Part shown: positions 1-45,348 of the stretch, in pieces
Layout of the letters: each line of letters starts with the position of its first letter
How positions within the stretch are numbered: position 1 is the stretch's first letter
Virus record (IMG/VR): IMGVR_UViG_3300042507_005574
Direction: 5' to 3' (one strand)
DNA: 64,000 nucleotides
From: a virus
The notes under the pieces: model-generated
What the model was told of the DNA's origin: nothing
What the model saw: only the letters and a program-made list of their open reading frames with translations
The model's database searches: none
Position numbers and translations under genes: made by a program

Positions 1-298
1 TGTTAACGATGTAGTTGATTCCAATTTGCTTGCCATGAATCACAAGGTTGATGGTGAAATTGAAACTTTCAACATTTGCACGGGAGTCGGTACTAAAATT
101 ATTGACATAGCGAAGATGATAGCAGGAGAAGACCATCCCATCACCTATGGTCCTATCTCTGATGTTGAGTTACCTTGGTGTGTTGGATCCTACGAGTTAG
201 CGAAAAATAGATTGGGTTGGGAACCTGTATATAAAATTGAAGAGGTAAAAGACCTCTATAACAACTGGCTTCGTAGCAAGGACATTAAGGCAATATGA
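1..298 (+). CDS. NAD-dependent nucleotide-sugar epimerase/dehydratase, C-terminal part (5' end outside window)
   Basis: The frame is open from base 2 (VNDVVDSNLLAM...FNICTGVGT...LGWEP). This matches the V-x-D-V...FNIGTG...LGW-x-P C-terminus of extended SDR epimerases. It lies directly upstream of glf. Confidence 0.8.
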   Translation, partial: VNDVVDSNLLAMNHKVDGEIETFNICTGVGTKIIDIAKMIAGEDHPITYGPISDVELPWCVGSYELAKNRLGWEPVYKIEEVKDLYNNWLRSKDIKAI

Positions 299-1410
299 AA
301 TATGACTATCTAATAGTTGGGTCCGGACTTTTCGGATCAATTTTTGCCCGTCAAATGCACGATAGCGGAGCAAAATGTCTTGTTATTGATAAAAGAAATC
401 ATATAGGTGGAAACTGTTATACGAGTAATCACAACGGTATCCATGTTCACGAATATGGCCCTCATATATTTCACACCAATAGTGATAAAGTTTGGGAGTA
501 CATGAATAGATGGACAAAGTTTAATCACTTTGTTAATAGACCGAAAGTTCGTCATGGAGATAAGGTTTACTCTTTCCCAATAAATCTTCTCACTCTGTAT
601 CAACTTTGGGGGGTTTCTACACCCCAAGAGGCTAAAGCAAAATTAGAGCAGGTTAGAATCCCTATTTCATCCCCCTCCAATCTAGAAGATTGGATCCTAT
701 CACAGGTTGGTGAAGAAATCTATAAGAAGTTTGTTTATGGTTACACGAAGAAGCAATGGAATCGAAACCCCAAAGATTTGCCTGCATCCATAATAAAGAG
801 ATTACCAATCCGTCTTACTTATGATGACAACTACTTTGAGGATCGATATCAAGGAATACCAATTGGAGGGTATACATCTATTTTCTCAAAGTTACTCAAA
901 GGTATTGCAACTGAAACTGAAGTTGATTTCCTAAAAGATAGAGACTATCTTGAATCCAAAGCAAAGAAAGTAGTCTATACTGGCGCAATTGATGAGTTAT
1001 TTGATTGTGATATGGGAAGACTTGAGTGGAGGAGCCTAAGATTCGAACATGAAACTTTGATGGGAGACTTTCAAGGAAATGCCATATTTAATTACACAGA
1101 AGAAAGTGTTCCCTTCACTCGCATATGTGAGCACAAGCACTTTGAATTTGGTAAGCAAGATCATACTATAATAACAAAAGAATATCCTCAAGATTGGAAT
1201 CAGAATCGTGAGAAGTTCTATCCTATAAATGATGAAGAAAATAATCTCTTGTATAGAAAATACCGTGATCGCCTTAAGGATGAACGATACATACTAGGCG
1301 GTAGATTGGCAGACTACAAATATTATGATATGCATCAAGTTGTTGGCTCTGCTTTGGTGAGATCAGAAAAGGAAATACATAATGAACATAGTGATTGCGA
1401 ATCAATTTAA
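295..1410 (+). CDS. glf: UDP-galactopyranose mutase
   Basis: FAD-binding IVGSGLFG, HIGGNCY, HEYGPHIFHT, YTKKQW, YFEDRYQGIP and GRLADYKYYDMHQ motifs; 371 aa. Confidence 0.95.
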   Translation: MKYDYLIVGSGLFGSIFARQMHDSGAKCLVIDKRNHIGGNCYTSNHNGIHVHEYGPHIFHTNSDKVWEYMNRWTKFNHFVNRPKVRHGDKVYSFPINLLTLYQLWGVSTPQEAKAKLEQVRIPISSPSNLEDWILSQVGEEIYKKFVYGYTKKQWNRNPKDLPASIIKRLPIRLTYDDNYFEDRYQGIPIGGYTSIFSKLLKGIATETEVDFLKDRDYLESKAKKVVYTGAIDELFDCDMGRLEWRSLRFEHETLMGDFQGNAIFNYTEESVPFTRICEHKHFEFGKQDHTIITKEYPQDWNQNREKFYPINDEENNLLYRKYRDRLKDERYILGGRLADYKYYDMHQVVGSALVRSEKEIHNEHSDCESI

Positions 1411-8312: not shown

Positions 8313-8383
8313 GTGCCGTGGGAGGTCAGCATCTCAGGTCGGCTTATACCCGAGCAACACAAGGGCAGCACTTGTACGGCATA
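8313..8383 (+). tRNA. Atypical tRNA-Ile(UAU) or tRNA-like RNA
   Basis: Cloverleaf: acceptor GTGCCGT/ACGGCAT, D-stem GAGG/TCTC, anticodon stem TCGG/CCGA with loop CTTATAC (anticodon TAT, 8345-8347), T-stem ACAAG/CTTGT. The T-loop is non-canonical (GGCAGCA) and no CCA is encoded. Confidence 0.7.
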
Positions 8384-8427: not shown

Positions 8428-8434
8428 ATAAATA
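8428..8434 (+). promoter_or_regulatory. T4-type late promoter
   Basis: ATAAATA 26 nt upstream of ATG 8460. Confidence 0.55.
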
Positions 8435-8459: not shown

Positions 8460-9674
8460 ATGCTGTCATTTACACAATACAATCATGAGATAATCCAAGA
8501 GGAAACTGCTAGAAATAAACACTTGGATCATATCGAAGATTTGATGATCCTTTACGGACAAAAGGGATTAGATGACTCAATAGCATTCCTCAAGGATATA
8601 ATCGAAAGCCTAAAAACCGGAAATACTAGTTTGGGAGTTTCCACCAAATGGGATGGGAAGCCTGCAATCATTTGTGGCGAAAACCCTGATAATGGTAAAT
8701 TCTTCGTATCGACAAAGTCTGTTTTCGGTGCTAAAGAGCAAAAAGCATATCATACGGAGGCTGAACTTAAAAAATCTGGATTGCCTTCTGATTTGATTGA
8801 TAAGATGGCAGTGTGTTTGAAAATGCTTACTAAGGTTGGTATTGGCAAGAGAATTTTGCAAGGCGATTTGATGTTTACTGCCGATATGAAAAAGGCAGTA
8901 AATATCGATGGTAAGCCACATATAGGATTTCAGCCAAACACAATCATGTACGCTGTTCCAAAGAATAGTGATATTGGGTCGGCAATCTCTTCAGCAAAAT
9001 TAGGAATCGCATTTCATACTGAATATAAGGGAGACAGTCTGAAGTCTATTCAGGCAGTATCTTATAATTTCAATTCCAAGGTTTTAAAACAAACAAGTGA
9101 GGTTTGGGTAACAGATCCAAACATCTACGATCTCTCTCCTGCCCTTATGAAGGGCGGCGAATCAGAGATGGCAATCAGGATGCTCAAGGAATGCGAAGCC
9201 CTAGCATCTAAAGTGAGGCCGTTTATCAAGACTCTAATCGCACAGAAAGAGATAGCAGAAACTTATTTACTGCCTTATGTCAATAGTACAATCAATGGCG
9301 GAATGAGCAATTTCAATGCATCCAGTCTCAAACTAAACATCAAAGGTAAGTTTGAAAAGGACATAAATAAACTAAAAACCGACAAAGCCAAGCAAGCAAA
9401 AACTGAATTAATGCAGAAGCAATTAGATTTCGTTGATGCGTATTCAAAGCAGATCGATCAAATGTTTGAACTTCACAATAAAATTGCCAACATCAAAGAA
9501 ATTCTTTTGCGTAAACTGTATGCCATTTCAACCCTAGGTCATTTCTTCATGGATGAGAATGGAATTCGCCCAACAAATCCTGAAGGTATTGTAATCTATC
9601 GATCAGGATCGGTGATTAAACTAGTTAATCGTTTAGAATTTAGTAAACAAAACCGAATGGTGAATCAGAGGTAA
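8460..9674 (+). CDS. Conserved T4-like phage protein (DUF6267-like) with ligase/nucleotidyltransferase motifs; probable head-internal protein
   Basis: STKWDGKPA (KxDG, motif I), LQGDLMF (III), PEGIVI (IV), IKLVNRLEF (V). The N-terminus MLSFTQY...IQEE resembles a capsid-targeting sequence. Confidence 0.6.
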   Translation: MLSFTQYNHEIIQEETARNKHLDHIEDLMILYGQKGLDDSIAFLKDIIESLKTGNTSLGVSTKWDGKPAIICGENPDNGKFFVSTKSVFGAKEQKAYHTEAELKKSGLPSDLIDKMAVCLKMLTKVGIGKRILQGDLMFTADMKKAVNIDGKPHIGFQPNTIMYAVPKNSDIGSAISSAKLGIAFHTEYKGDSLKSIQAVSYNFNSKVLKQTSEVWVTDPNIYDLSPALMKGGESEMAIRMLKECEALASKVRPFIKTLIAQKEIAETYLLPYVNSTINGGMSNFNASSLKLNIKGKFEKDINKLKTDKAKQAKTELMQKQLDFVDAYSKQIDQMFELHNKIANIKEILLRKLYAISTLGHFFMDENGIRPTNPEGIVIYRSGSVIKLVNRLEFSKQNRMVNQR

Positions 9675-9675
9675 A

Positions 9676-12600
9676 ATGCTTAACTTCTCAGACCGCAATA
9701 ATCAGATTGATGAAGCGAAAAAAGATAGTGTAGTTTTTGCATTCGGTAGAATGAACCCACCAACTATCGGCCATAAGGTAGTTGTGGATAAAGTTCTAAG
9801 TGAAGCCGCAGCAAAGGGAGCAGATCATTTTATCTTTGTGTCTAAAACTCAGGACACCAAAAAAAATCCACTCAGTCAAAAGTCAAAGATCGATTATCTG
9901 AAGAAGTTGTTTCCGAAGGTTAAGTTTCCTTTTGGTAAATCGACAAATCCATTCGATACTGTTTTGTATCTCTGTGAACTAGGATATAAAAACATCTATG
10001 TGGTCACAGGAAGTGATCATGTTGCAGAATACAACCGTATTAAGGAATACAAAGGTAAAGTAGCGACAAACGATCCAAAAAAGCGGTCGTACTCATTTGA
10101 TAATCTTGAGGTCATAGTTGCAGGCAAGGCAAGAGTTAAAGTTACTCTTGATATGATAGATGATATGCTCAAGAAGGGTCAACAAGTTGATCCTATGTAC
10201 ATGTCTGCATCTCTTATGCGTGAAGCGGCATTTAAGGACCGATTTGATATATTCTCAATCGGCATTCCTGGAAATAAAACTCTTGCACAGAGTTTATGGA
10301 AAGATGTTCGTAAAGGTATGAGTTTGAAAGAGGACTTTGATCTTTTAAATGAGGCAACCAAAAAAGAGGATGTGACAATCATCGCTCTCACATCATCAGA
10401 AAAAGATTTGAGTGATACCATAGAAAAAACTGAAGCGATCTGCAAAAGGCGTAAGATAAAATTCTATCCTGTAAAAACAAGCAAAGCACAGGTAGAAATA
10501 TCAAATGTCGCTTCGAAGAAGATTACTATAAAGAACTACGATGGAGAGGGAAAAGATGTAACCATCGTTCCAGAGAACACAGTTGCAATCGTTCGTGGTG
10601 GTGTGATGAACACCGAAATTGGTGTAGCCATTATGACGATCTTACAGAATAATGGTGTGTTCATGGTAAACGAAAGAGCGGGTATGGAACTGTGTGCCAA
10701 TAAGTTGGAAACGGCTATCGCACTCAAGAAACACGGTTTGCCTCACCCACGCACGGCTTTCGTCGCAAATGAAGAGAATATCGAATCGGCTGTCAAGGAA
10801 GTCGGAGGTAAGTTTCCGATCATCTGTAAGACCCTTACAGGCGCAGAAGGAATCGGTGTGTCCAAAATTGAGAGCATGGAAAGTCTCAAGTCTGTGCTAC
10901 AGACATTATGGAAGTATGGTGCAGAGATCATCATCCAAGAGTTTCTTCCTGAATTCAAGAATGATGTTCGTAGCATAGTACTCAACGGGAAGATATTTGC
11001 ATGTGCCAAAAGAGACAAAGCACCTAAAGACTTCCGAACCAATATTGCCCGTGGCTCTAAGGGCGGATCACATCAATTGTCTGACGAAGAGATTAAACTA
11101 GTTGAGCAAGCCGCACGGGTCAGTAAATGTTTCTATGTTGGTATAGACCATGTTATCAACGATGGTAAGCCATACATCATTGAAATGAACGCAAGTCCAG
11201 GTAGTGGAAATATCTATTATCGTTACTATGAGGATGGCGAAGGTAAAGATAATGTTAAAGGTGAAGAACTTGTAGAAGACTTTGTGGAATACATTCTCAA
11301 CAAGGCACATTGGAAACTATTTTCGAATCTTGCTGTTCGTGAGAATGTTAAGGTCGATGGCAATGAATATACCGCAAAGATCGATACTGGAAATAGCGGT
11401 TACAATATGATTCATGCCGACAACATAAAAGATAATGGTGACCACACCGTTTCATTTAAGTTAGCAGACGGTAAGAAGATTACGAAGAAGATTGTCAGCA
11501 GAATCAAAGTTAAGAGTGGCATCGGGGAGAAAGAAAGAATTGTGGTTTTCATGGACATTGAGTTCCATGGTAAGAGATATCCGAACATCAAATTCAGCCT
11601 TGGTGACAGAAACCATATGTCAACCAAGGTTCTTCTTGGACTGAGATTCCTTGAGAAGACTGGCTATGTTGTTGATCCAGCAAACGCAATATATCCACAA
11701 CCAGATGTCAAGAAAAAAACATCAGGGGAAGAGGAAGAAGAAGAGGAACTATCTGAAAGTATCATTCCTAAAGGCAAAGCAAATATTGCGGGTGCCTTAT
11801 TTAAAGTGATGACCACTAAAGAAATGGTTGGGAAAATATTTGAACTATCCAAACTGTGGAAATCCAACTCAGTTGAGTTCAAGAAAAAACTACAGGATCT
11901 TGAGACAGAAATAGTGATTGACTACAATAAGTCTTTAGAAACGGGAGCAAAAACTGCTTTTTTTGTAGATAGATTCAAGTTACAGAGCATCATTGATAGG
12001 ATTTTGTATAAAATGCTTGATGTCGCTGGTGTAGATTTACAGACATATGTGGCTAAATTGTCTTCAGTATTTGGATCTCAATTAACCATGGGATATTCAA
12101 TCGACGGAGAATCAATACAAGAAGCCGATATTACTAAGGGGAAAAAATTCTACACGAAGAGTGGAAAGATTAAGGCATCCCCAAAAGATAAAAAGACTGG
12201 ATTGCCAAAGAAGTATGTCTCTGGATTATCGAAGCGAGAGGCTGAACTTCGAAAGAAGAGACTTGCAAAGCGTAAGGATATGTCAGATGACGATCCGAAG
12301 ACTTGGGAGTTTGTTAATCCTAGAGAAAAGAATATCAAGACTAAACCTTCGAAATATACGACTGCTTTCAAGAAACTTGCCAAAAAAGGTAAATTGAAGG
12401 TAGAAAACAAAAATGAAATAAGAGAGTCTCTTTCTGCTATTAAGGCATTTGAGAATCTTGATTATATGACGAGAATGAACAGAGCCATAATGCTTGAGCA
12501 AAAGGCGATTCAAAACGGTAAAACAGATTCCGCAAAAATTTACCGATCATTTATAGAATATGAAAAGGACTTAAGATATAGAAATTACAAAGTTGATTTA

Positions 12601-13389
12601 GATATATCTGAAGAAATAGAATCTCTTCTTTATGAGGTGAGTCCTCCATCTGGTCCTGCTCGTCGCTTTTCAAAGAAGGAAAAAATTAAAAAGCAGTTTC
12701 AGAAGAGATACGGTAAAGACTGGAAAAGAGTTTTCTACGCTACAGCATGGAAGATGCACGGAGAGGAAGTAGAGTCCACCCGATGGCTTAATGAATCGAA
12801 GAAGATCAATGCAACCATGCAATGGACTGCTATCGGTAAGAGGGGACCTCTTCTGATCGGCTCTGACGAAATCGTCAAGACCTACAAGAAAGACACCCCT
12901 GGTGAGCGGGAGCGATTGGGTGAAGATAAGCCTTGTTGGGTAGGGTTTAAACAATTGGGAATGAAGACAAAGAATGGAAAAAAAGTTCCTAATTGTGTGC
13001 CTGTGAAGGAAGATACTTCTGAAGAAGAGAAGTCTGCGCTTTACAAAGAGTGGCAGAAATTAGTGAATATGTCCGGCAAAGAAATACAAAGTTTTCTTGA
13101 CTCAGAAGAGGGTAAAGAGGCAGGACTATCACGAAAAGAAGCAGGCAAGGCAGGAGCAGATGGGGGTAAAATTACAAGTGGAAGAGATTCTGCCCGGGCC
13201 ATTATTCGTATGCTTGATACTCCCAAAGAGGACTGGACGGCAAATGATTGGAAATGGGCGAGTAAGCAAGTCAGTTTCATCAGTAGAATGCAAGGTGTGA
13301 AGGGCGGTATGAGGGATGAGAAAGGTCATCCAACCCGAAAACTTCTTGCTCTGAAAGTTTGGGGTCATAATCCGGAGAGGAAATCATGA
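9676..13389 (+). CDS. Multi-module protein: HxGH cytidyltransferase-like NTase + RimK-family ATP-grasp ligase + RimB-like (aspartic-type) protease + several small phage modules + C-terminal DUF3140-like domain
   Basis: NTase: FGRMNPPTIGH and MSASLMR (~9724-10320). RimK: CANKL, PRT, KTLTGAEGIGV, IIQEF, DFRTNIARG, GID, IEMNASPG (~10370-11310). Protease: AKIDTG...FSLGDR..M...VLLG (~11330-11690). Then a 7xE tract, PCWVG...VPNCVP, and VNMS...WGHNP at the C-terminus. Confidence 0.8.
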   Translation: MLNFSDRNNQIDEAKKDSVVFAFGRMNPPTIGHKVVVDKVLSEAAAKGADHFIFVSKTQDTKKNPLSQKSKIDYLKKLFPKVKFPFGKSTNPFDTVLYLCELGYKNIYVVTGSDHVAEYNRIKEYKGKVATNDPKKRSYSFDNLEVIVAGKARVKVTLDMIDDMLKKGQQVDPMYMSASLMREAAFKDRFDIFSIGIPGNKTLAQSLWKDVRKGMSLKEDFDLLNEATKKEDVTIIALTSSEKDLSDTIEKTEAICKRRKIKFYPVKTSKAQVEISNVASKKITIKNYDGEGKDVTIVPENTVAIVRGGVMNTEIGVAIMTILQNNGVFMVNERAGMELCANKLETAIALKKHGLPHPRTAFVANEENIESAVKEVGGKFPIICKTLTGAEGIGVSKIESMESLKSVLQTLWKYGAEIIIQEFLPEFKNDVRSIVLNGKIFACAKRDKAPKDFRTNIARGSKGGSHQLSDEEIKLVEQAARVSKCFYVGIDHVINDGKPYIIEMNASPGSGNIYYRYYEDGEGKDNVKGEELVEDFVEYILNKAHWKLFSNLAVRENVKVDGNEYTAKIDTGNSGYNMIHADNIKDNGDHTVSFKLADGKKITKKIVSRIKVKSGIGEKERIVVFMDIEFHGKRYPNIKFSLGDRNHMSTKVLLGLRFLEKTGYVVDPANAIYPQPDVKKKTSGEEEEEEELSESIIPKGKANIAGALFKVMTTKEMVGKIFELSKLWKSNSVEFKKKLQDLETEIVIDYNKSLETGAKTAFFVDRFKLQSIIDRILYKMLDVAGVDLQTYVAKLSSVFGSQLTMGYSIDGESIQEADITKGKKFYTKSGKIKASPKDKKTGLPKKYVSGLSKREAELRKKRLAKRKDMSDDDPKTWEFVNPREKNIKTKPSKYTTAFKKLAKKGKLKVENKNEIRESLSAIKAFENLDYMTRMNRAIMLEQKAIQNGKTDSAKIYRSFIEYEKDLRYRNYKVDLDISEEIESLLYEVSPPSGPARRFSKKEKIKKQFQKRYGKDWKRVFYATAWKMHGEEVESTRWLNESKKINATMQWTAIGKRGPLLIGSDEIVKTYKKDTPGERERLGEDKPCWVGFKQLGMKTKNGKKVPNCVPVKEDTSEEEKSALYKEWQKLVNMSGKEIQSFLDSEEGKEAGLSRKEAGKAGADGGKITSGRDSARAIIRMLDTPKEDWTANDWKWASKQVSFISRMQGVKGGMRDEKGHPTRKLLALKVWGHNPERKS

Positions 13390-13646
13390 AATATTACGAC
13401 AACCTAATTAAAAACATTAATGAGGCAAGAATTGCTGGATTGGAAAAGAAATCAAAACAAAGTGGAATTTCTTATGGAATTTTGAAACAAGTATTCGATA
13501 GAGGCATGGCTGCATGGAAAAGTGGACATAGACCTGGAACAACGCCTCAACAATGGGCTTTTGCCAGAGTTAATTCATTTATTGTTGGCGGCAAAACTCG
13601 TAGAACCGCAGATAAAGATTTGTGGAAAAAAGCAAAGGGCGGCTAA
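13386..13646 (+). CDS. Small basic protein, DUF5824-like C-terminal half
   Basis: GISYGILKQVFDRGMAAWKSGHRPG..QQWAFARVNSF...ADKDLW; CTS-like N-terminus MKYYDNLIKNINE. Confidence 0.6.
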   Translation: MKYYDNLIKNINEARIAGLEKKSKQSGISYGILKQVFDRGMAAWKSGHRPGTTPQQWAFARVNSFIVGGKTRRTADKDLWKKAKGG

Positions 13647-13684: not shown

Positions 13685-15337
13685 ATGGCAGTATTCTATT
13701 GGGTCGGCGGATATACAGGTTATACAGGTCCAGAAAGTGGATATAACACAACAGGTTCATATTGGACTAACTATGTTACGGGACTAACCACCTCGTATGG
13801 AGATGTATTTTATTCACCGTATGCATGGGATATTCGTCAAAACTGGAGGTTGGAGCACACTGGCCAACAACAACCTACTGATCCTGAAATTAGAGTGATT
13901 AGAGATTCAGTACCAACGAGATTACCTAAGGGTGGTGATGATGTCATCATAGGTGGAGTTGCTGCATATATTGGAACCGGACCTTATGGTGGGGGCAGCA
14001 CATCCTCAGGTGGAGCGTCTGGCGGTGGATCGGGACAGTTCTTAAGTTCACCATTAATATTTACGCCGAATATTGCACCGAATAATTTTTCACTTTTATT
14101 CGGAGGAATGTCTGGTGATGGAATCACCTCTGCCGGATTAACCGCTTGGAAAGAAGGCGGATCAACTAAACTGGCTTCATTTACAGTTAAACCATATTTC
14201 ACAAGACTTGATAAAACCATTAATTTTGGAGCATCTGGCAGCAGTATATCAATAAGAACGGGAGAGATTGGAAGTTGGGGACTCTCTTATTTGTGGGGAA
14301 ATTCAGTCCCTTCAGATTTTACTGGTGCCGCTCTTGGTAGAGCATTGACTCTTGTTAGTAATCCGATAAACTTAATTTTGGCTGATACTAACAACAACTG
14401 TTTTGTAAACAGATTACAATCTTCAAGAAGTGCAACGGGTGGAGCAGTTATTCATATCAAATCTATGAATTATGATGCTGGTTTTACTTCTGTAAGTTTT
14501 AATATGCACGGTAGATTTGGAGCAGGTTATACTGCTTCAGTTTGGGGGACAAATGAAACTTCTGCAATCAACCACTACTTAGTGCCAAGAGGAGAATGGG
14601 ACAGAGTATTGAATGATTGTGCAAATACAGAAATGAGTAATGTGGTCTGTAATTTTGTGAGGCACGGTGGATTCAGTTGGGATCGAGCGACGGGGTATTT
14701 CTCATCAGACAGAACTGCAAATATCAATGAATTTTTCATTTCATCAACTACAATAAATGGATCGAATAATAAAACTGGTGTTAATATAGAATGTTATGAA
14801 CAGGCGGCAGTTGGAAAGATTCTTGCTATAGGTTGGAGAAATCAAAGCCCAACTAACTGTATGACAATAGGAAATCTCGGTGGAATACCGTCAACAGTGA
14901 ATCAACTGTTAACTGTCTATACTGGAATCGGTATTTCAGGAAATCCTTATTTCGATTATCAATTTCCGCTAAACGCATGGAAAGAATCATATCCTTGGAG
15001 CATCAGTAATTGGTGGACTGGACCAATAGTAATGATAAGAAACTGTTTTGTGGAAGATCTAATTCATGGTGGTGGAGTGATCTTAGCAGATCCAAATTCG
15101 TCTGCGAATGATTATGTCATTCTGAAAGATGGCTTTATGGATTATCCGGCTCAAATAATATGCAAGAATTTTGAAAATCCTCAATGGAAAAATTTCTTAC
15201 TTGGATATTCCCCCAACTCAGACCTGGGAATTGGTGTAAGAACAAGAAATATTTCAAGTTCTTATTTAAACACTTACGCTAAACGGTATTTCATGATTCC
15301 GTATGATGGTCAAGGAACAACTATAACTAGAGACTGA
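13685..15337 (+). CDS. Putative virion structural protein (G/S/T-rich, beta-rich), paralogue of 15384-17045
   Basis: Shares YWVGG.TGYTG..SGY, PY.W....NWR, LP.GGDD and L.GGMSGDG.T blocks with the next gene; late promoter. Confidence 0.55.
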   Translation: MAVFYWVGGYTGYTGPESGYNTTGSYWTNYVTGLTTSYGDVFYSPYAWDIRQNWRLEHTGQQQPTDPEIRVIRDSVPTRLPKGGDDVIIGGVAAYIGTGPYGGGSTSSGGASGGGSGQFLSSPLIFTPNIAPNNFSLLFGGMSGDGITSAGLTAWKEGGSTKLASFTVKPYFTRLDKTINFGASGSSISIRTGEIGSWGLSYLWGNSVPSDFTGAALGRALTLVSNPINLILADTNNNCFVNRLQSSRSATGGAVIHIKSMNYDAGFTSVSFNMHGRFGAGYTASVWGTNETSAINHYLVPRGEWDRVLNDCANTEMSNVVCNFVRHGGFSWDRATGYFSSDRTANINEFFISSTTINGSNNKTGVNIECYEQAAVGKILAIGWRNQSPTNCMTIGNLGGIPSTVNQLLTVYTGIGISGNPYFDYQFPLNAWKESYPWSISNWWTGPIVMIRNCFVEDLIHGGGVILADPNSSANDYVILKDGFMDYPAQIICKNFENPQWKNFLLGYSPNSDLGIGVRTRNISSSYLNTYAKRYFMIPYDGQGTTITRD

Positions 15338-15383: not shown

Positions 15384-17045
15384 ATGAACTACTACTGGGT
15401 TGGTGGACACACAGGATACACAGGTGCAAATAGTGGTTATAGTGGAGGGCTTTGGTTTAAACCCGGTTCAGTAACTGGCGGAATCACAGCCGGAGATCTA
15501 TACTTCGGACCTTATTCATGGGGTGTTGTAGAAAACTGGAGAGTCATTGAAATAAGTGATGCCATATCAGGTCTTGCTATTTATGGGATTCCAACGCAAC
15601 TGCCGCAGGGAGGTGATGATTCGGCATTCTTTGGAAAAGTTGTAAATGCTTACACTATTTCTGGAGATTCTACTGGAAGTTCTATACTAAATCCCCACAT
15701 GTATTCTTGCTTATATGGAGGTATGTCTGGAGATGGATTTACTGCATCTTCGGCAACTGGATGGGCAGGAAACAACGGAGCAGCAAGATTTCAGCCAATT
15801 GATATAAGAGTAGACAAATCATTTATTCCAGGAAGCACAACGGGTCTTCTTTTAACTGATTTAGGGAGAATAGGTGCGATTGGAATCACATCAGATAATC
15901 CTCTTCGGGTTTATCCTGGAAATACTGTTATATTTGAAAAGGCATCTGAAACTGTTGGTGCCAACATTTCTCTGAGAAGTATGTTCACTTCTAAGAGTGT
16001 TATTCAGAGTTATTCTAATGATTCTAGACTAAATCCATCTGTGGCACTTGCTTCGGATGGATCTCCTGATAATCCCGTAGTCAGTTTGGGAAGAAAATTA
16101 AAAGTAGACTTAAAGGGCGGATGGTCAAGAGTTCGCCAAGATGCAGGAACTCTAGTATTAGGACAGATGTTTACAACAAATCTTCCCGGTTATCCAGATG
16201 CGTTCGGAATAACATGGGCAAATCAACCAGCCAGTGTATTGGTTGATGGAAAAATTAGAAAATTCCTTGCTAAAGAAGATAGCAGCGTTCACTACTATAT
16301 GATTAAACCGGGATCTGTGCTTGAAGGTGTTGAGATTATTGGCAGATCTTCATTCCCTCTATCTGCAACTCATGGTCCTAATCCATCGATCATTAGAGTT
16401 TCAGGGTGGGCCGGTATGTCCGAACCTCTTTCTTCTACTGGTGGCTCAGGTAATGTAGGAACTCGTCCGCAAAATGGTATAATTTTAGGTAAAATTCCCA
16501 CAACCAACGGTCTGACTGCTGGATTACCTTTCTACATTGAAGATCTTCATATAGATAATTTCCTTAATAGTTCAGTTTTCGGAGGAACGCATCCGCCGAA
16601 TGTTTGGCTTGCAAATACTGAAATTAAAGAGTTTAAGGGAGTGGCGGGAAGAGCAATCCCCCTGACAAATGACCCCTATAACACTCCGAATAGAGTTCGC
16701 ATTAAGAATGGATTCTTGATGAATGGGTTTACTCTTGAAACTTCTGATGCATATATTGGTGCCCAAGATGGTCTTGTGAGTTTGGTAGTGGGTATCACAA
16801 ATACTTCAGGATTTAGCGGTGCCTACGCAACTGGAGTGGCTTCGAACATTGGACTCACGACAATAAGTGGTTCAATTTATGGTCTAAGATACGATAATGT
16901 ATCTCCTTTTGGAACTCAAGGTTTTCCTCCTGTTTGCACGATAACATATCCATCCTTCTTTGATGAAGGAATCATTGGGGCAACTGCATATGTCAGAACT
17001 TGGAATACAACATCACTTCAAAGACCCGCAAGTGATCCTGATTAA
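15384..17045 (+). CDS. Putative virion structural protein, paralogue of 13685-15337
   Basis: Same N-terminal blocks as the previous gene; RBS GGAG. Confidence 0.55.
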   Translation: MNYYWVGGHTGYTGANSGYSGGLWFKPGSVTGGITAGDLYFGPYSWGVVENWRVIEISDAISGLAIYGIPTQLPQGGDDSAFFGKVVNAYTISGDSTGSSILNPHMYSCLYGGMSGDGFTASSATGWAGNNGAARFQPIDIRVDKSFIPGSTTGLLLTDLGRIGAIGITSDNPLRVYPGNTVIFEKASETVGANISLRSMFTSKSVIQSYSNDSRLNPSVALASDGSPDNPVVSLGRKLKVDLKGGWSRVRQDAGTLVLGQMFTTNLPGYPDAFGITWANQPASVLVDGKIRKFLAKEDSSVHYYMIKPGSVLEGVEIIGRSSFPLSATHGPNPSIIRVSGWAGMSEPLSSTGGSGNVGTRPQNGIILGKIPTTNGLTAGLPFYIEDLHIDNFLNSSVFGGTHPPNVWLANTEIKEFKGVAGRAIPLTNDPYNTPNRVRIKNGFLMNGFTLETSDAYIGAQDGLVSLVVGITNTSGFSGAYATGVASNIGLTTISGSIYGLRYDNVSPFGTQGFPPVCTITYPSFFDEGIIGATAYVRTWNTTSLQRPASDPD

Positions 17046-19088: not shown

Positions 19089-19565
19089 ATGCGTAAATTC
19101 AAGGAACTCAGAAAAACGATTTCAGAAACATCAACTGGTCTTGATATTTCTGGAATTAATCGTCCTAGAGTTGGTCCTATGGATAGTGATAATGGAATAG
19201 ATTTCAACCAAAATCTTTCACAACTAAACCCATCGGAAGTTGATAGAATTAACATGTTTTTAGGTGCTTTGTCGGCAAAACCTTATCTTGATCCGAATCA
19301 GGCAATCAAGGAAGCACAAAGTAAATTGTCAACTGTTGGACTTCAATTCAACCTTAGCAATAATGATGATTTGAGAAAGAGTGGAGAAAGAATTTACCCA
19401 CTAAGTTTGTTTGGCGGATCATTCGGATCTGATGGTAAAACCTATGGCACATCAACTGACGATAACATTGAGCGTAAAATTGGATATAAGTTAGGATTAA
19501 TGGTAACATCTGTTCCGACATCAACAGGCATGACGAGTCTCAAAGCAGAAATAATGCCCATGTGA
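19089..19565 (+). CDS. Hypothetical protein with CTS-like N-terminus
   Basis: MRKFKELRKTISE; RBS AGGA. Confidence 0.6.
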   Translation: MRKFKELRKTISETSTGLDISGINRPRVGPMDSDNGIDFNQNLSQLNPSEVDRINMFLGALSAKPYLDPNQAIKEAQSKLSTVGLQFNLSNNDDLRKSGERIYPLSLFGGSFGSDGKTYGTSTDDNIERKIGYKLGLMVTSVPTSTGMTSLKAEIMPM

Positions 19566-22865: not shown

Positions 22866-24866
<2,001 letters not shown>

Positions 24867-27409: not shown

Positions 27410-29266
27410 ATGCCAATTAGAATATCAGACTTAATAGAACAAATGAACCGTGAGCAAAATCTCACAGGTCCAGGATTTTTCCATCTAATTCATTCGGGAA
27501 ATGTTGATTTTACCGTCAATGGTATAGTCGGAACGGATGAGACAAAATTTGGATCGTATTTACCGGTTTCATACGGTCAAAAATATATTATAGAAAACGA
27601 AGCAAACTGGAATGCATTTAGTTCTAGCGCAGCCCTGCCATCAGGTTTTGGGTTGGGCGACATCTTACAAAGAGGATCGTCCACATGGGAAATCTATCTT
27701 GATGCGAGTAATTCTAAATCCGAAGGTGCTATTGTTTATAATAAGCACGACAACAAGTTCTATTTCTACGATGGGACTAATTGGGTTGCTGTCGGAACTG
27801 GTGCTGCTGGTGGAGGTGGAGACAGCGGCGTAACAGGAATTGGTTTTGGTGATGATGTTGGACTGACGGGTAAAGTTAATATTACTGGTGATGCTGGTGG
27901 TGTTGGTCTCGGTGGCGTTTACATAACAAGGGATGGAAACACCATTTCAGTAGGATTGTCCGCTGCTGGTGCTTCAACATATGTTCAATATAGAGATGCT
28001 AATGGCCGATTGGCGGGAAATTCAGGATTAAACTGGACTAATGTCACTAGAACTCTTGTTGTTGGTGACATTGGTTCTTCTTCCCCTTCTACATCGGGCA
28101 AAATTAGAATTGTCGGTTCCAAGGGTTATCTTCAATTCCCCGATGGAACAACACAAACTACTGCAAGAAATTTCTTTGGTTTAACTGGACCAACGCACCC
28201 GGATTTTGTTAAAGGAATATCCAGCAGCGGTCATACTGGTGACCGTTTACTGATTGCCACGGGACCATCTGCAAATCCATTTAGAACATATGTTCGGTAC
28301 GGAAATGCTTGGTTCCAAACTAATGTTGCTGGAGTTGGTAGAGCGGGAGCACAAGGAACTACAGGTCCAACTGGTGGATTTGATATCTCTGGTGTCACTT
28401 TCCAACAAAATACAGGAATTACTCATCAGTCAAATGACACTCTTGGAACCGACACAGGCAGAGCAAGAAAGATAATGTTCCTTCAAGATGATGGAACTTT
28501 GACATTTGATTATATTCGTAATTACGATGTATTTAAGCCAACAGACTTCACATTCTCAGTAAAAACATTTACAAGCAACATTTCATCACCTGTACTCATT
28601 GGAATAAACAACTACCTGTTGAGTGATGGGCCGGTAACGGTAAATGCAACTTATCAGTTCGGGCCTCCTATTACAGGAAATGTTTATGTGATAAATCCTA
28701 CGCAAGGAACAGGCTTTCCTGTTTACTTCCCAACAAGTGCTATGGATAGCATCACATTTAGTTCACAGACATTGACTGCTGCGGCAGGGGGAAGTTTGGT
28801 TCTCAGACTTGAAGCCACAGGTTATACGGGAGTAATAGGTGGACCAGGAAGACAAGTATCGACTAAAGATATAACAATTTCCTTTGCCAATTCTTTCCTT
28901 TATGGTGTTTCGGGGGGATCAAGTTTGGATGGAAGTTCTTTGGGAAGTGGATTTACTGGTAATTGGGTCACTAGAACCACCACAAATAGTATAGATCAAA
29001 CTTTCACTGTAAATGTTCCCGTTGGACAATACATTTACTTTGCATTCCCTGAAAGAATCGGTGAAGCGACATATCAAATAAATGACCTGGGTATCGGTGG
29101 ATTTAGTCCACAGGGTTTGAATGGAGTTCCTGGTGTCAGCGCACAAACTTGGGGTAATGCTAACGGTTATCGTGAAAAGTATTTCTTCTATCGATCAATA
29201 AACTCAGGTCTTGGTGATAACACTAAAGTTGATGTTGCTCCAATAACTAATCCTGAATTACTATAA
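27410..29266 (+). CDS. Modular fibre protein
   Basis: FYFYDGTNW, GVTGIGFGDD.GLTGK and GDRLLIATGP modules; the C-terminal domain is homologous to that of 25865-27397. Confidence 0.7.
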   Translation: MPIRISDLIEQMNREQNLTGPGFFHLIHSGNVDFTVNGIVGTDETKFGSYLPVSYGQKYIIENEANWNAFSSSAALPSGFGLGDILQRGSSTWEIYLDASNSKSEGAIVYNKHDNKFYFYDGTNWVAVGTGAAGGGGDSGVTGIGFGDDVGLTGKVNITGDAGGVGLGGVYITRDGNTISVGLSAAGASTYVQYRDANGRLAGNSGLNWTNVTRTLVVGDIGSSSPSTSGKIRIVGSKGYLQFPDGTTQTTARNFFGLTGPTHPDFVKGISSSGHTGDRLLIATGPSANPFRTYVRYGNAWFQTNVAGVGRAGAQGTTGPTGGFDISGVTFQQNTGITHQSNDTLGTDTGRARKIMFLQDDGTLTFDYIRNYDVFKPTDFTFSVKTFTSNISSPVLIGINNYLLSDGPVTVNATYQFGPPITGNVYVINPTQGTGFPVYFPTSAMDSITFSSQTLTAAAGGSLVLRLEATGYTGVIGGPGRQVSTKDITISFANSFLYGVSGGSSLDGSSLGSGFTGNWVTRTTTNSIDQTFTVNVPVGQYIYFAFPERIGEATYQINDLGIGGFSPQGLNGVPGVSAQTWGNANGYREKYFFYRSINSGLGDNTKVDVAPITNPELL

Positions 29267-29276
29267 AGGATGACAA

Positions 29277-29672
29277 ATGGCTATTAGAGTTGGCGATGTA
29301 CTTGAGCAGTCGAATCGAAAGAACACAGTTTCCACATCTGATTTTTTCTACTTAATGGGAGTATCAGATATTGACTTTTCTGTTGATAAAATCCTTGAAT
29401 CTGGAGACACCAATATAGTCACAACTCTAGGAACAAAGTATGTAATACTTGATGCGGGAACTAACGACATCACTCCTGACGGATTAGGAAATAATGATAT
29501 TGTTAAGTATGACGGAAATGAGTGGATTATCTACAAAGATGTCAGTAACCCCGAAACTAATTTCGGAATAATTTATGACAAAGAAACTAAATTATTCTAT
29601 CAGTATGATCCAAGTGAAGGTTGGTTGGTTATGTTGAAAAGTGGGCAAATTGATGGTGGAACTTTCCCCTAA
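29277..29672 (+). CDS. Small structural/adaptor protein (paralogue of the N-terminus of 27410)
   Basis: MAIRVGDVLEQSNR versus MPIRISDLIEQMNR; YDGNEW; ends IDGGTFP. Confidence 0.65.
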   Translation: MAIRVGDVLEQSNRKNTVSTSDFFYLMGVSDIDFSVDKILESGDTNIVTTLGTKYVILDAGTNDITPDGLGNNDIVKYDGNEWIIYKDVSNPETNFGIIYDKETKLFYQYDPSEGWLVMLKSGQIDGGTFP

Positions 29673-45321: not shown

Positions 45322-45348
45322 TTCAGTATAAATAATATCGGGTATATT

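Follow-up and report, generated by a model that had tools for sequence, protein, structure and literature searches.

Candidate head-internal polyprotein of a T4-like marine phage with conserved aliphatic-x-Glu motifs in its interdomain linkers

Introduction

The 64,000-nucleotide (nt) stretch of viral DNA held as IMG/VR record IMGVR_UViG_3300042507_005574, the whole of which is called the window below, contains a single open reading frame (ORF) encoding 1237 amino acids (aa). Its product, P0001, joins a nucleotidyltransferase (NTase), a ligase, a protease and a string of small modules behind a short N-terminal leader. The question raised by this locus is what such a chain might serve for and whether it stays in one piece. 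An initial annotation had proposed a polyprotein punctuated by I/L-x-E cleavage sites of the prohead protease (gp21), which would release cargo proteins inside the capsid.

The T4 capsid-targeting/gp21 system is the textbook route by which proteins are injected together with phage DNA, but our picture of it comes chiefly from a handful of small proteins of coliphages. Earlier work has described capsid-targeting leaders, processing by gp21, phiKZ-type cleavage at multiple sites and polyvalent proteins (PMC9026906, PMC5512222). We found no description in the literature of several enzymes and small basic modules carried on one T4-type leader, with gp21-type sites doubling as recombination joints. 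The comparisons presented below point, with moderate confidence, to P0001 being a head-internal cargo precursor that would be packaged via its leader, cut by gp21 in its linkers and ejected with the DNA.

Results

Aliphatic-x-Glu motifs are conserved in the flexible linkers of P0001

The ORF at 9676-13389 and every motif listed in the initial annotation were verified in the sequence: IDE at aa 11-13 (nt 9706), LKE at 217 and LNE at 224 (nt 10324-10353), LSE at 692 directly after seven Glu (nt 11749-11757), IQE at 814 (nt 12115), IRE at 915 (nt 12418), ISE at 977 and LYE at 985 (nt 12604-12636), LNE at 1038 (nt 12787), LGE at 1081 (nt 12916) and VKE at 1110 (nt 13003). Domain boundaries were taken from two AlphaFold runs, and linkers were defined as residues with a predicted local distance difference test (pLDDT) score below 50, which comprised aa 1-12, 219-230, 549-552, 667-702, 757-764, 795-827, 987-990, 1029-1041, 1043-1064, 1075-1087 and 1162-1167. 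Within P0001 itself, 20 [IL]-x-E sites were counted, compared to 13.4 in composition shuffles (P=0.03), and the Glu of 8 of these 20 fell within the pLDDT<50 residues, which make up 13% of the chain (binomial P=0.003).

Conservation of the motifs was then assessed in an alignment of 110 homologues carrying the N-terminus, thinned to 31 representatives less than 85% identical in the core, of which the most distant were about 40% identical. A motif was counted as kept when it was present in at least 60% of the representatives (n = 30). All eight [ILVM]-x-E motifs in low-pLDDT linkers (positions 11, 217, 224, 692, 814, 985, 1038 and 1081) were kept, compared to only 4 of 28 control tripeptides from the same linkers with an aliphatic first and a non-Glu third residue (Fisher P=1.6e-5). 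With Pfam-based boundaries, the counts were 10/14 motifs and 7/63 controls (P=1.2e-5). A chance origin of the internal motifs was rejected on these control-tripeptide tests. The enrichment at junctions postulated in the initial annotation is thus strong by conservation across homologues and modest in the single sequence. Likewise, its placement of the motifs at domain junctions held in so far as they are conserved specifically in flexible linkers, but it had picked 11 of 26 [ILV]-x-E sites, and the other 15 are mostly intradomain.

At the conserved sites, the third residue before the presumed cut (P3) stays I, L, V or M and the residue directly before it (P1) stays Glu, with Asp almost never accepted, while 6 to 11 different residues are found at P2. 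Judged from the alignment, such a pattern marks a short linear motif read as aliphatic-x-Glu, identical to the rule for T4 gp21. In the double site after the NTase (LKE and LNE), the P1 Glu is invariant and P2 is free. The poly-Glu tract followed by [LI]-x-E at the end of the RimK-protease unit is kept in the closer subfamily, and IQE814, in the linker at aa 795-827, is kept in 12/13. ISE977 (23/30), paired with LYE985 (20/30), falls where a helix modelled with middling confidence begins. LNE1038 (12/18) and LGE1081 (24/27) both fall in low-pLDDT linkers (aa 1029-1041 and 1075-1087). Two of the proposed cleavage sites did not hold up: IRE915 is kept in only 9/26 and lies within a confident helix, and VKE1110 is kept in only 1/7. 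IFE721 is kept in 0/10.

The N-terminal leader resembles the T4 capsid-targeting sequence

The leader of P0001 keeps an [ILVMF]-x-E motif in 24 of 30 representatives. Most homologues carry a 10-residue leader with F4, I/L8, E10 and A11. Starts seen in the family include MKNFAQHITE, MIERFLHRIDE and MKKLTQIITE, each followed by A, the pattern being an aromatic residue at position 4, I/L at 8 and Glu at 10; relative to it, the P0001 leader MLNFSDRNNQIDE has a three-residue insertion. In T4 IPIII, the first ten residues are enough to direct a protein to the head; targeting depends on residues 4 and 7 and processing on residues 8 and 10, and Asp at position 10 blocks processing (PMC9026906). Comparison with these determinants showed that the leader family matches them position by position.

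A leader of this type was found on 5 of the 40 N-termini in the window, compared to 0.42 expected from internal positions (P=6e-5, for a pattern defined post hoc). The five genes are that of P0001, both genes flanking it, and those at 19089 and 22866. Stand-alone homologues also bear it, namely, Syn9 gp184 (MKKFSAFLSE↓A, the arrow marking the position after Glu), Melnitz gene 18 (MKKFSEIIE↓A) and the Mosig RimK-protease (..NYLEE↓A), and in Melnitz it heads genes 15-18 and 20. A tblastn search of Syn9 and HTVC008M matched one place each, the NTase, and did not detect the RimK-protease in either phage; the leader therefore occurs independently of the embedded protease.

Other N-termini in the window were also noted. 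The gene at 19089-19565 starts with MRKFKELRKTISE.., and the gene at 22866-24866, which is collagen-like and has tail-fibre-family matches, is an odd candidate for head targeting. The genes at 27410-29266 and 29277-29672 have the N-termini MPIRISDLIEQ and MAIRVGDVLEQ, with L/V-x-E at residues 8-10, and their products are probably paralogous virion proteins.

P0001 contains three apparently active enzymes and a string of small modules

Profile searches with P0001 revealed four recognisable units: the NTase, a RimK ligase, a PF05618 protease and a DUF3140/DUF6321 module (Table 1). The phrog_3041 match to the NTase spans aa 14-236. The Pfam profile PF01467 scored 16 on this domain, below its cut-off of 21, and scored above the cut-off in the Melnitz and Syn9 homologues. 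Nucleotidyltransferases of this class are marked by a Rossmann-like fold, (H/T)xGH and a second SxxxxR-type motif; here, T30-x-G32-H33, S179 and R182 were invariant in 52 aligned homologues, the set used for all three enzymes. The pLDDT of the NTase in the AlphaFold model is 85-93. The RimK ATP-grasp domain scored 105.6 bits against PF08443 (cut-off, 21), with E503 and N505 (Mg/ATP) invariant, and the model of aa 1-700 matched the RimK structures 7qys and 5zk6 in Foldseek (E ~4e-19; template modelling [TM] score of 0.82 on the target). The PF05618 domain ('Zn_protease', of the retropepsin-like RimB type) scored 37.8 bits against a cut-off of 27, and its D570-T571-G572 is invariant. Given the invariance of these catalytic signatures, the NTase, the ligase and the protease all look active.

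The ligase and the protease form one unit that terminates in seven Glu and LSE (aa 685-694). The initial annotation had seen no cleavage motif between them, but LVE532 (18/30) and VRE554 (25/30) are present there. LVE532 lies in a predicted helix and VRE554 in the first strand of the protease, and the short loop at aa 549-552 is free of motifs; the prediction that the two domains stay together still stands. In agreement with the annotation on this point, they behave as one unit, with stand-alone fused RimK-PF05618 genes present in Mosig and YerA41.

The C-terminal half is less easily placed. Foldseek returned no match for it in the PDB at E<1, and the matches from a wide VIA-align structure search were all unspecific helical bundles (Z at most 8). 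Structure gave no function for any of modules A-G. Module C (aa 918-987) was modelled with a pLDDT above 90, the Cys-x-Cys hairpin corresponds to E416-434 of the AlphaFold model, and the DUF3140/DUF6321 profile matches aa 1125-1229. No match to the P0001 gene was found by megablast against cultured phages. A homologue search with P0001 retrieved 421 clusters, many of them full length and on separate contigs, with 60-94% identity. A sequencing or fusion artefact was rejected, as many contigs independently carry the same uninterrupted ORF.

Modules are gained and lost at the motifs

A presence/absence comparison of the homologues showed that module content varies and that the breakpoints lie exactly at the motifs, as the initial annotation had anticipated. 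Constant parts are the leader, the NTase, the RimK-protease unit, module C (918-987) and the DUF3140 module; modules A (695-816), B (817-917), D (988-1040), E (1041-1083) and the Cys hairpin (1084-1112) are variable. Of the 11 representatives with module A, 10 show an unambiguous start of this module, directly after poly-Glu-[LI]-x-E. The Cys hairpin, flanked by LGE↓DK and VKE↓DT, is present in few homologues and as an insert is common only to P0039; its motif recurs in Melnitz gene 18. Other inserts lie at the same sites or a few residues from them, with a small module after ..ITE/LSE and another before ..EAD. P0115-P0118, which are about 40% identical, have some 200 additional residues between modules D and G that bear a ParB/sulfiredoxin-like DGHHRW motif, showing that quite different enzymes can enter the same joints.

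Fission and fusion were also observed. In the window, the C-terminal half of DUF5824 has a gene and a leader of its own; in HTVC008M and Melnitz, it is joined to the NTase protein as its C-terminus. In P0123 (1325 aa), DUF6267, NTase, RimK and protease are fused in one chain, and the DUF6267-NTase junction keeps a relic of the leader (..LKQFSDIAN..) in which Glu has become Asn. On this evidence, the joints look like retained leaders of once-separate genes, most of them with the Glu kept.

Relatives provide virion and prohead-protease evidence

Sullivan et al. (2010) found the 'putative citidylyltransferase (T4-GC190)', a cyanophage core gene product, in purified S-SM1 virions alongside gp21, and the supplementary table of their study flags T4-GC190 as structural (PMC3037559). 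For the RimK-protease homologue of YerA41, annotation as structural comes from liquid chromatography-tandem mass spectrometry of particles, which is weaker evidence, as the same data set holds many enzymes.

An 80%-identical homologue, L007, lies on a 119.6-kb contig that encodes sheath, tube, portal (gp20), gp21, gp22 and gp23. The gp21 of this contig matches Peptidase_S77 (PF03420) with an E value of 4e-38 and has gp20, gp22 and gp23 adjacent to it; the gp22 scaffold was confirmed by 2273 phage matches. On the same contig, the propeptide of the major capsid protein ends in ..YLKE followed by AAPT, and gp21 starts with MKLITE..IITE followed by A; therefore, as read from these two sequences, the motif used by the canonical gp21 substrates of this lineage is the same as that in the P0001 linkers. 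PF03420 was not found in the contigs of three other relatives, which are 28-67% complete, an absence that says nothing.

The gp22 scaffold of an 80%-identical relative (L019:7910-9022), on a contig with a gp21 ORF at L019:7228-7875, contains TEEEEEEEELASE, almost identical to the poly-Glu and L-x-E of P0001 (aa 685-694). Poly-Glu with L-x-E may be a shared element for core entry or gp21 recognition.

The P0001 gene lies in a block of three leader-bearing genes

The source of the window is a T4-like marine myophage. Its genes include a DnaB helicase, a primase, a thymidylate synthase, a ribonucleotide reductase, an SbcCD-like nuclease and tail-fibre genes; no head module is present within the 64 kb. 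Among cultured phages, the modules have their closest relatives in the Kyanoviridae (Mosig, HTVC008M and Melnitz) and in cyanomyoviruses. The P0001 gene is the middle one of three contiguous leader-bearing genes (8460-9674, 9676-13389 and 13386-13646; Table 1), and the synteny and leaders of this block are kept in L004, L005 and L009. The synteny comparison excluded the 38%-identical homologue L012 (IMGVR_UViG_3300045125_000034), which appears as several short ORFs in an ATG-only scan; its assembly could be frameshifted or of low quality, or the gene could truly be split.

An ATAAATA sequence precedes the block, and the same sequence is found at equal spacing before the collagen-like tail-fibre gene (22844; gene at 22866) and at 45328. 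Its placement gives a weak hint of late transcription of the block. The window shows no enrichment of the strict T4 late-promoter octamer TATAAATA (2 occurrences versus 3.7 expected).

Further elements were noted around the block. A tRNA-like element lies at 8313-8383, between the DnaB-side genes and the three leader-bearing genes. Downstream, 13685-15337 and 15384-17045 encode adjacent proteins of about 550 aa that share the N-terminus ..YWVGG.TGYTG.. and have no PHROG or Pfam match; a 502-aa ORF near a relative's head genes (L019:14355-15863) has a similar start, MANFYWQGQS...

TABLE 1 Features of the P0001 locus and predicted products of the precursor (arrows, position after Glu)
Feature	Residues (aa)	Position (nt)	Strand	Mass (kDa)	pI	Basis or remark
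Whole ORF, 1237-aa precursor (P0001)		9676..13389	+			Open frame, translation without stop
N-terminal leader (MLNFSDRNNQIDE, then Ala), capsid-targeting-sequence-like, predicted cut after Glu13	1-13	9676..9714	+			pLDDT<50
Cytidylyltransferase-like NTase module	14-219	9715..10332	+	23.2	9.7	phrog_3041, E 3e-42
Double site LKE↓DFDLLNE↓A between NTase and RimK unit		10324..10353	+			LKE kept 30/30, LNE 29/30; pLDDT<50 at aa 219-230
RimK ATP-grasp ligase plus PF05618 RimB-like aspartic protease, one unit	342-512 (ligase), 557-670 (protease)	10354..11757	+	52		Pfam
Variable helical module A, ends IQE then A	695-816	11758..12123	+			In ~36% of representatives
Basic modules B and C, ending in double site ISE↓EIESLLYE↓V	817-987	12124..12636	+	19	10	DUF5824-like, weak
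Small basic modules D (ends LNE↓S) and E (ends LGE↓D)	988-1040 (D), 1041-1083 (E)	12637..12924	+			Linker pLDDT<50, conserved motifs
Cys-x-Cys beta-hairpin module plus DUF3140/DUF6321 helical module	1084-1112 (hairpin), 1113-1237 (DUF)	12925..13386	+			Pfam/PHROG
Upstream gene, DUF6267, own leader MLSFTQYNHEIIQE		8460..9674	+			Pfam E 1e-88; same predicted operon
Downstream 86-aa gene, C-terminal half of DUF5824, leader MKYYDNLIKNINE↓A		13386..13646	+			Overlaps P0001 stop codon
ATAAATA, T4-type late-promoter-like		8428..8434	+			32 nt before first gene of three-gene block
Predicted product NTase	14-219			23.2	9.7	
Predicted product RimK-protease with Glu-rich tail	227-694			52.1	7.7	
Predicted product A	695-816			13.7	8.8	
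Predicted product B+C	817-979			19.1	10.0	
Predicted product D	988-1040			6.4	10.2	
Predicted product E	1041-1083			4.8	9.6	
Predicted product hairpin plus DUF3140	1084-1237			17.2	9.6	

Discussion

A model for packaging and processing of P0001

We consider it reasonably probable that P0001 is a head-internal cargo precursor that enters the prohead through its leader, is cut by gp21 in its linkers and leaves the capsid with the DNA. According to this model, the 13-residue leader would act like the T4 capsid-targeting sequence and tether the 140-kDa precursor to the prohead scaffolding core, where a gp21-type prohead protease (Peptidase_S77) would cut after the Glu of aliphatic-x-Glu in the flexible linkers. 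Cuts are predicted after residues 13, 219/226, 694, 816, 979/987, 1040 and 1083. They would release a 23-kDa NTase, a 52-kDa RimK and RimB-like protease with a Glu-rich tail, and five mostly basic proteins of 5-19 kDa, as well as three short acidic peptides of 7-13 residues. The initial annotation's estimate of 8-9 mature peptides is thereby replaced by about seven sizeable products plus these three short peptides. The pieces would remain with the DNA and be ejected into the next host. Because each linker would be a self-contained cut site, modules could be added, lost or separated as leader-bearing genes without disturbing the rest. We infer packaging, cleavage, ejection, the identity of the protease and the targets of all the P0001 enzymes from the comparisons described above.

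Several observations weigh against this model. The support for gp21 comes from the contig that carries the homologue L007. The P0001 gene adjoins replication genes (DnaB and primase) instead of a head cluster; the genes of the T4 internal proteins are likewise located outside the head cluster. The excess of motifs in the single sequence is weak (P=0.03-0.07), and two motifs of the initial annotation, IRE915 and VKE1110, are not conserved. The relic in P0123 has lost its Glu, so that, judging from this junction, not every junction need be cut. Finally, conserved aliphatic-x-Glu motifs could in principle serve core binding and not cleavage.

Alternative explanations

This last point leads to an explanation in which the leader alone is removed, as is the N-terminus of T4 Alt, and the protein is injected whole, the internal motifs being core-binding, targeting or other linker features. 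The evidence for the leader is indeed stronger than that for any single internal site, the junctions resemble retained leaders of once-separate genes, and in T4 a single stretch of ten residues holds overlapping determinants of targeting and of processing (PMC9026906). However, the P1 Glu is nearly invariant at the sites and Asp is almost never accepted, and in T4 it is processing, not targeting, that needs Glu. The sites moreover lie in disordered linkers, with redundant pairs as in the phiKZ propeptides (PMC9026906), and the module breakpoints coincide with them, which renders removal of the leader alone rather unlikely. We consider it distinctly unlikely that the embedded PF05618 RimB-type protease would instead process P0001 after Glu in the style of Gag-Pol, in the capsid or after injection, with the prohead protease uninvolved internally. 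Bacterial RimB trims poly-Glu tails, which makes a Glu-directed specificity plausible. The PF05618 domain is found in every family member, its D-T-G catalytic triad is invariant, and polyvalent proteins have been proposed to process themselves via embedded peptidases (PMC5512222). Yet Syn9 gp184 and the HTVC008M and Melnitz NTase proteins, in which no PF05618 protease was detected, bear the same leader and the site that closes the NTase (..GVRE↓). The motif follows the T4 gp21 rule and is also present at the relative's capsid propeptide end and gp21 N-terminus.

P0001 might also be an ordinary cytoplasmic multi-enzyme fusion that is never packaged, its motifs being a by-product of Glu- and Lys-rich linkers. 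This would fit with the adjoining DnaB helicase and primase genes, with the marginal motif excess in the single sequence and with C-terminal modules that have no recognisable fold or function. Such a fusion is nevertheless very improbable, given that the control tripeptides of the same linkers are not conserved and that the leader family is strongly non-random; the position of the gene has its counterpart in the T4 internal-protein genes mentioned above. Moreover, the orthologous NTase was found in cyanophage virions (PMC3037559).

Implications

The model of a packaged and gp21-cut precursor predicts seven neo-N-termini, which are testable by mass spectrometry. If it is true, the T4 route carries a polyprotein that strings several enzymes together as modules, and the short protease-site linkers between them serve as evolutionary joints at which cargo is swapped; RimK-type glutamylation and the uncharacterised NTase become candidates for immediate-early takeover of the host by phages of SAR11-like and cyanobacterial hosts. 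The P0001 family is abundant in marine and freshwater metagenomes, with the 421 clusters mentioned above.

A more far-reaching combination of these elements is conceivable, though we regard it as doubtful. One tag would deliver a fixed-ratio kit of about seven effectors at DNA entry, and the RimK/RimB pair would rewrite how ribosomal protein S6, or some other target with a Glu tail, is glutamylated. The gp21 cut after poly-Glu-LSE would leave a Glu-terminated tail that primes or auto-regulates the ligase-protease, and poly-Glu-L-x-E, found also in the relative's gp22, would mimic the scaffold for core entry.

Comparison with known systems

P0001 resembles T4 IPI, IPII, IPIII and Alt in its short leader with an aromatic residue at position 4 and I/L-x-E followed by Ala. 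As with the T4 internal proteins, its predicted mature products are basic and its gene lies outside the head cluster, and its relative has a Peptidase_S77. Alt is likewise an enzyme cargo and is cut at both ends. In contrast, T4 uses one gene per cargo, whereas P0001 has about seven modules on one leader with conserved internal sites between them, and its cargo is an NTase and a RimK/RimB pair instead of an ADP-ribosyltransferase or a restriction inhibitor.

The inner-body and ejection proteins of phiKZ, 201phi2-1 and SPN3US, with their gp21-like proteases (gp175, gp245), undergo multi-site cuts after Glu, with redundant pairs, and large head-internal proteins of the phiKZ type are ejected into the host (PMC9026906), as we propose for P0001. 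These phages belong to another group, however, with an S/A/G-x-E preference at P3, and the cuts mainly remove propeptides and do not separate strings of enzymes.

Polyvalent proteins of phages and conjugative elements (Iyer et al. 2017, PMC5512222) also combine many unrelated domains with an embedded peptidase and module shuffling, and are delivered by the virion. P0001 differs from them in its predicted processing by the prohead protease at short linear motifs. None of their hallmark domains (MuF, zincin MPTase, ART, ParB-like) was found on P0001 by Pfam, a ParB-like insert being present in the distant P0115-P0118, and RimK is not mentioned in PMC5512222.

The cyanophage T4-GC190 'cytitidyltransferase' (e.g., Syn9 gp184) has a homologous NTase with about 35% identity and the same leader type, and is present in the S-SM1 virion (PMC3037559). 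At about 380 aa it stands alone, lacking the RimK, the protease and the C-terminal module string.

Finally, the bacterial RimK/RimB system (rimABK), which acts in the glutamylation of ribosomal protein S6, shares with P0001 the ATP-grasp fold (TM score of 0.82), a PF05618 domain with an invariant D-T-G and an adjacent Glu-rich tract. In P0001, by contrast, the two enzymes are phage-encoded, fused in one chain, tagged with a leader and followed by an encoded poly-Glu.

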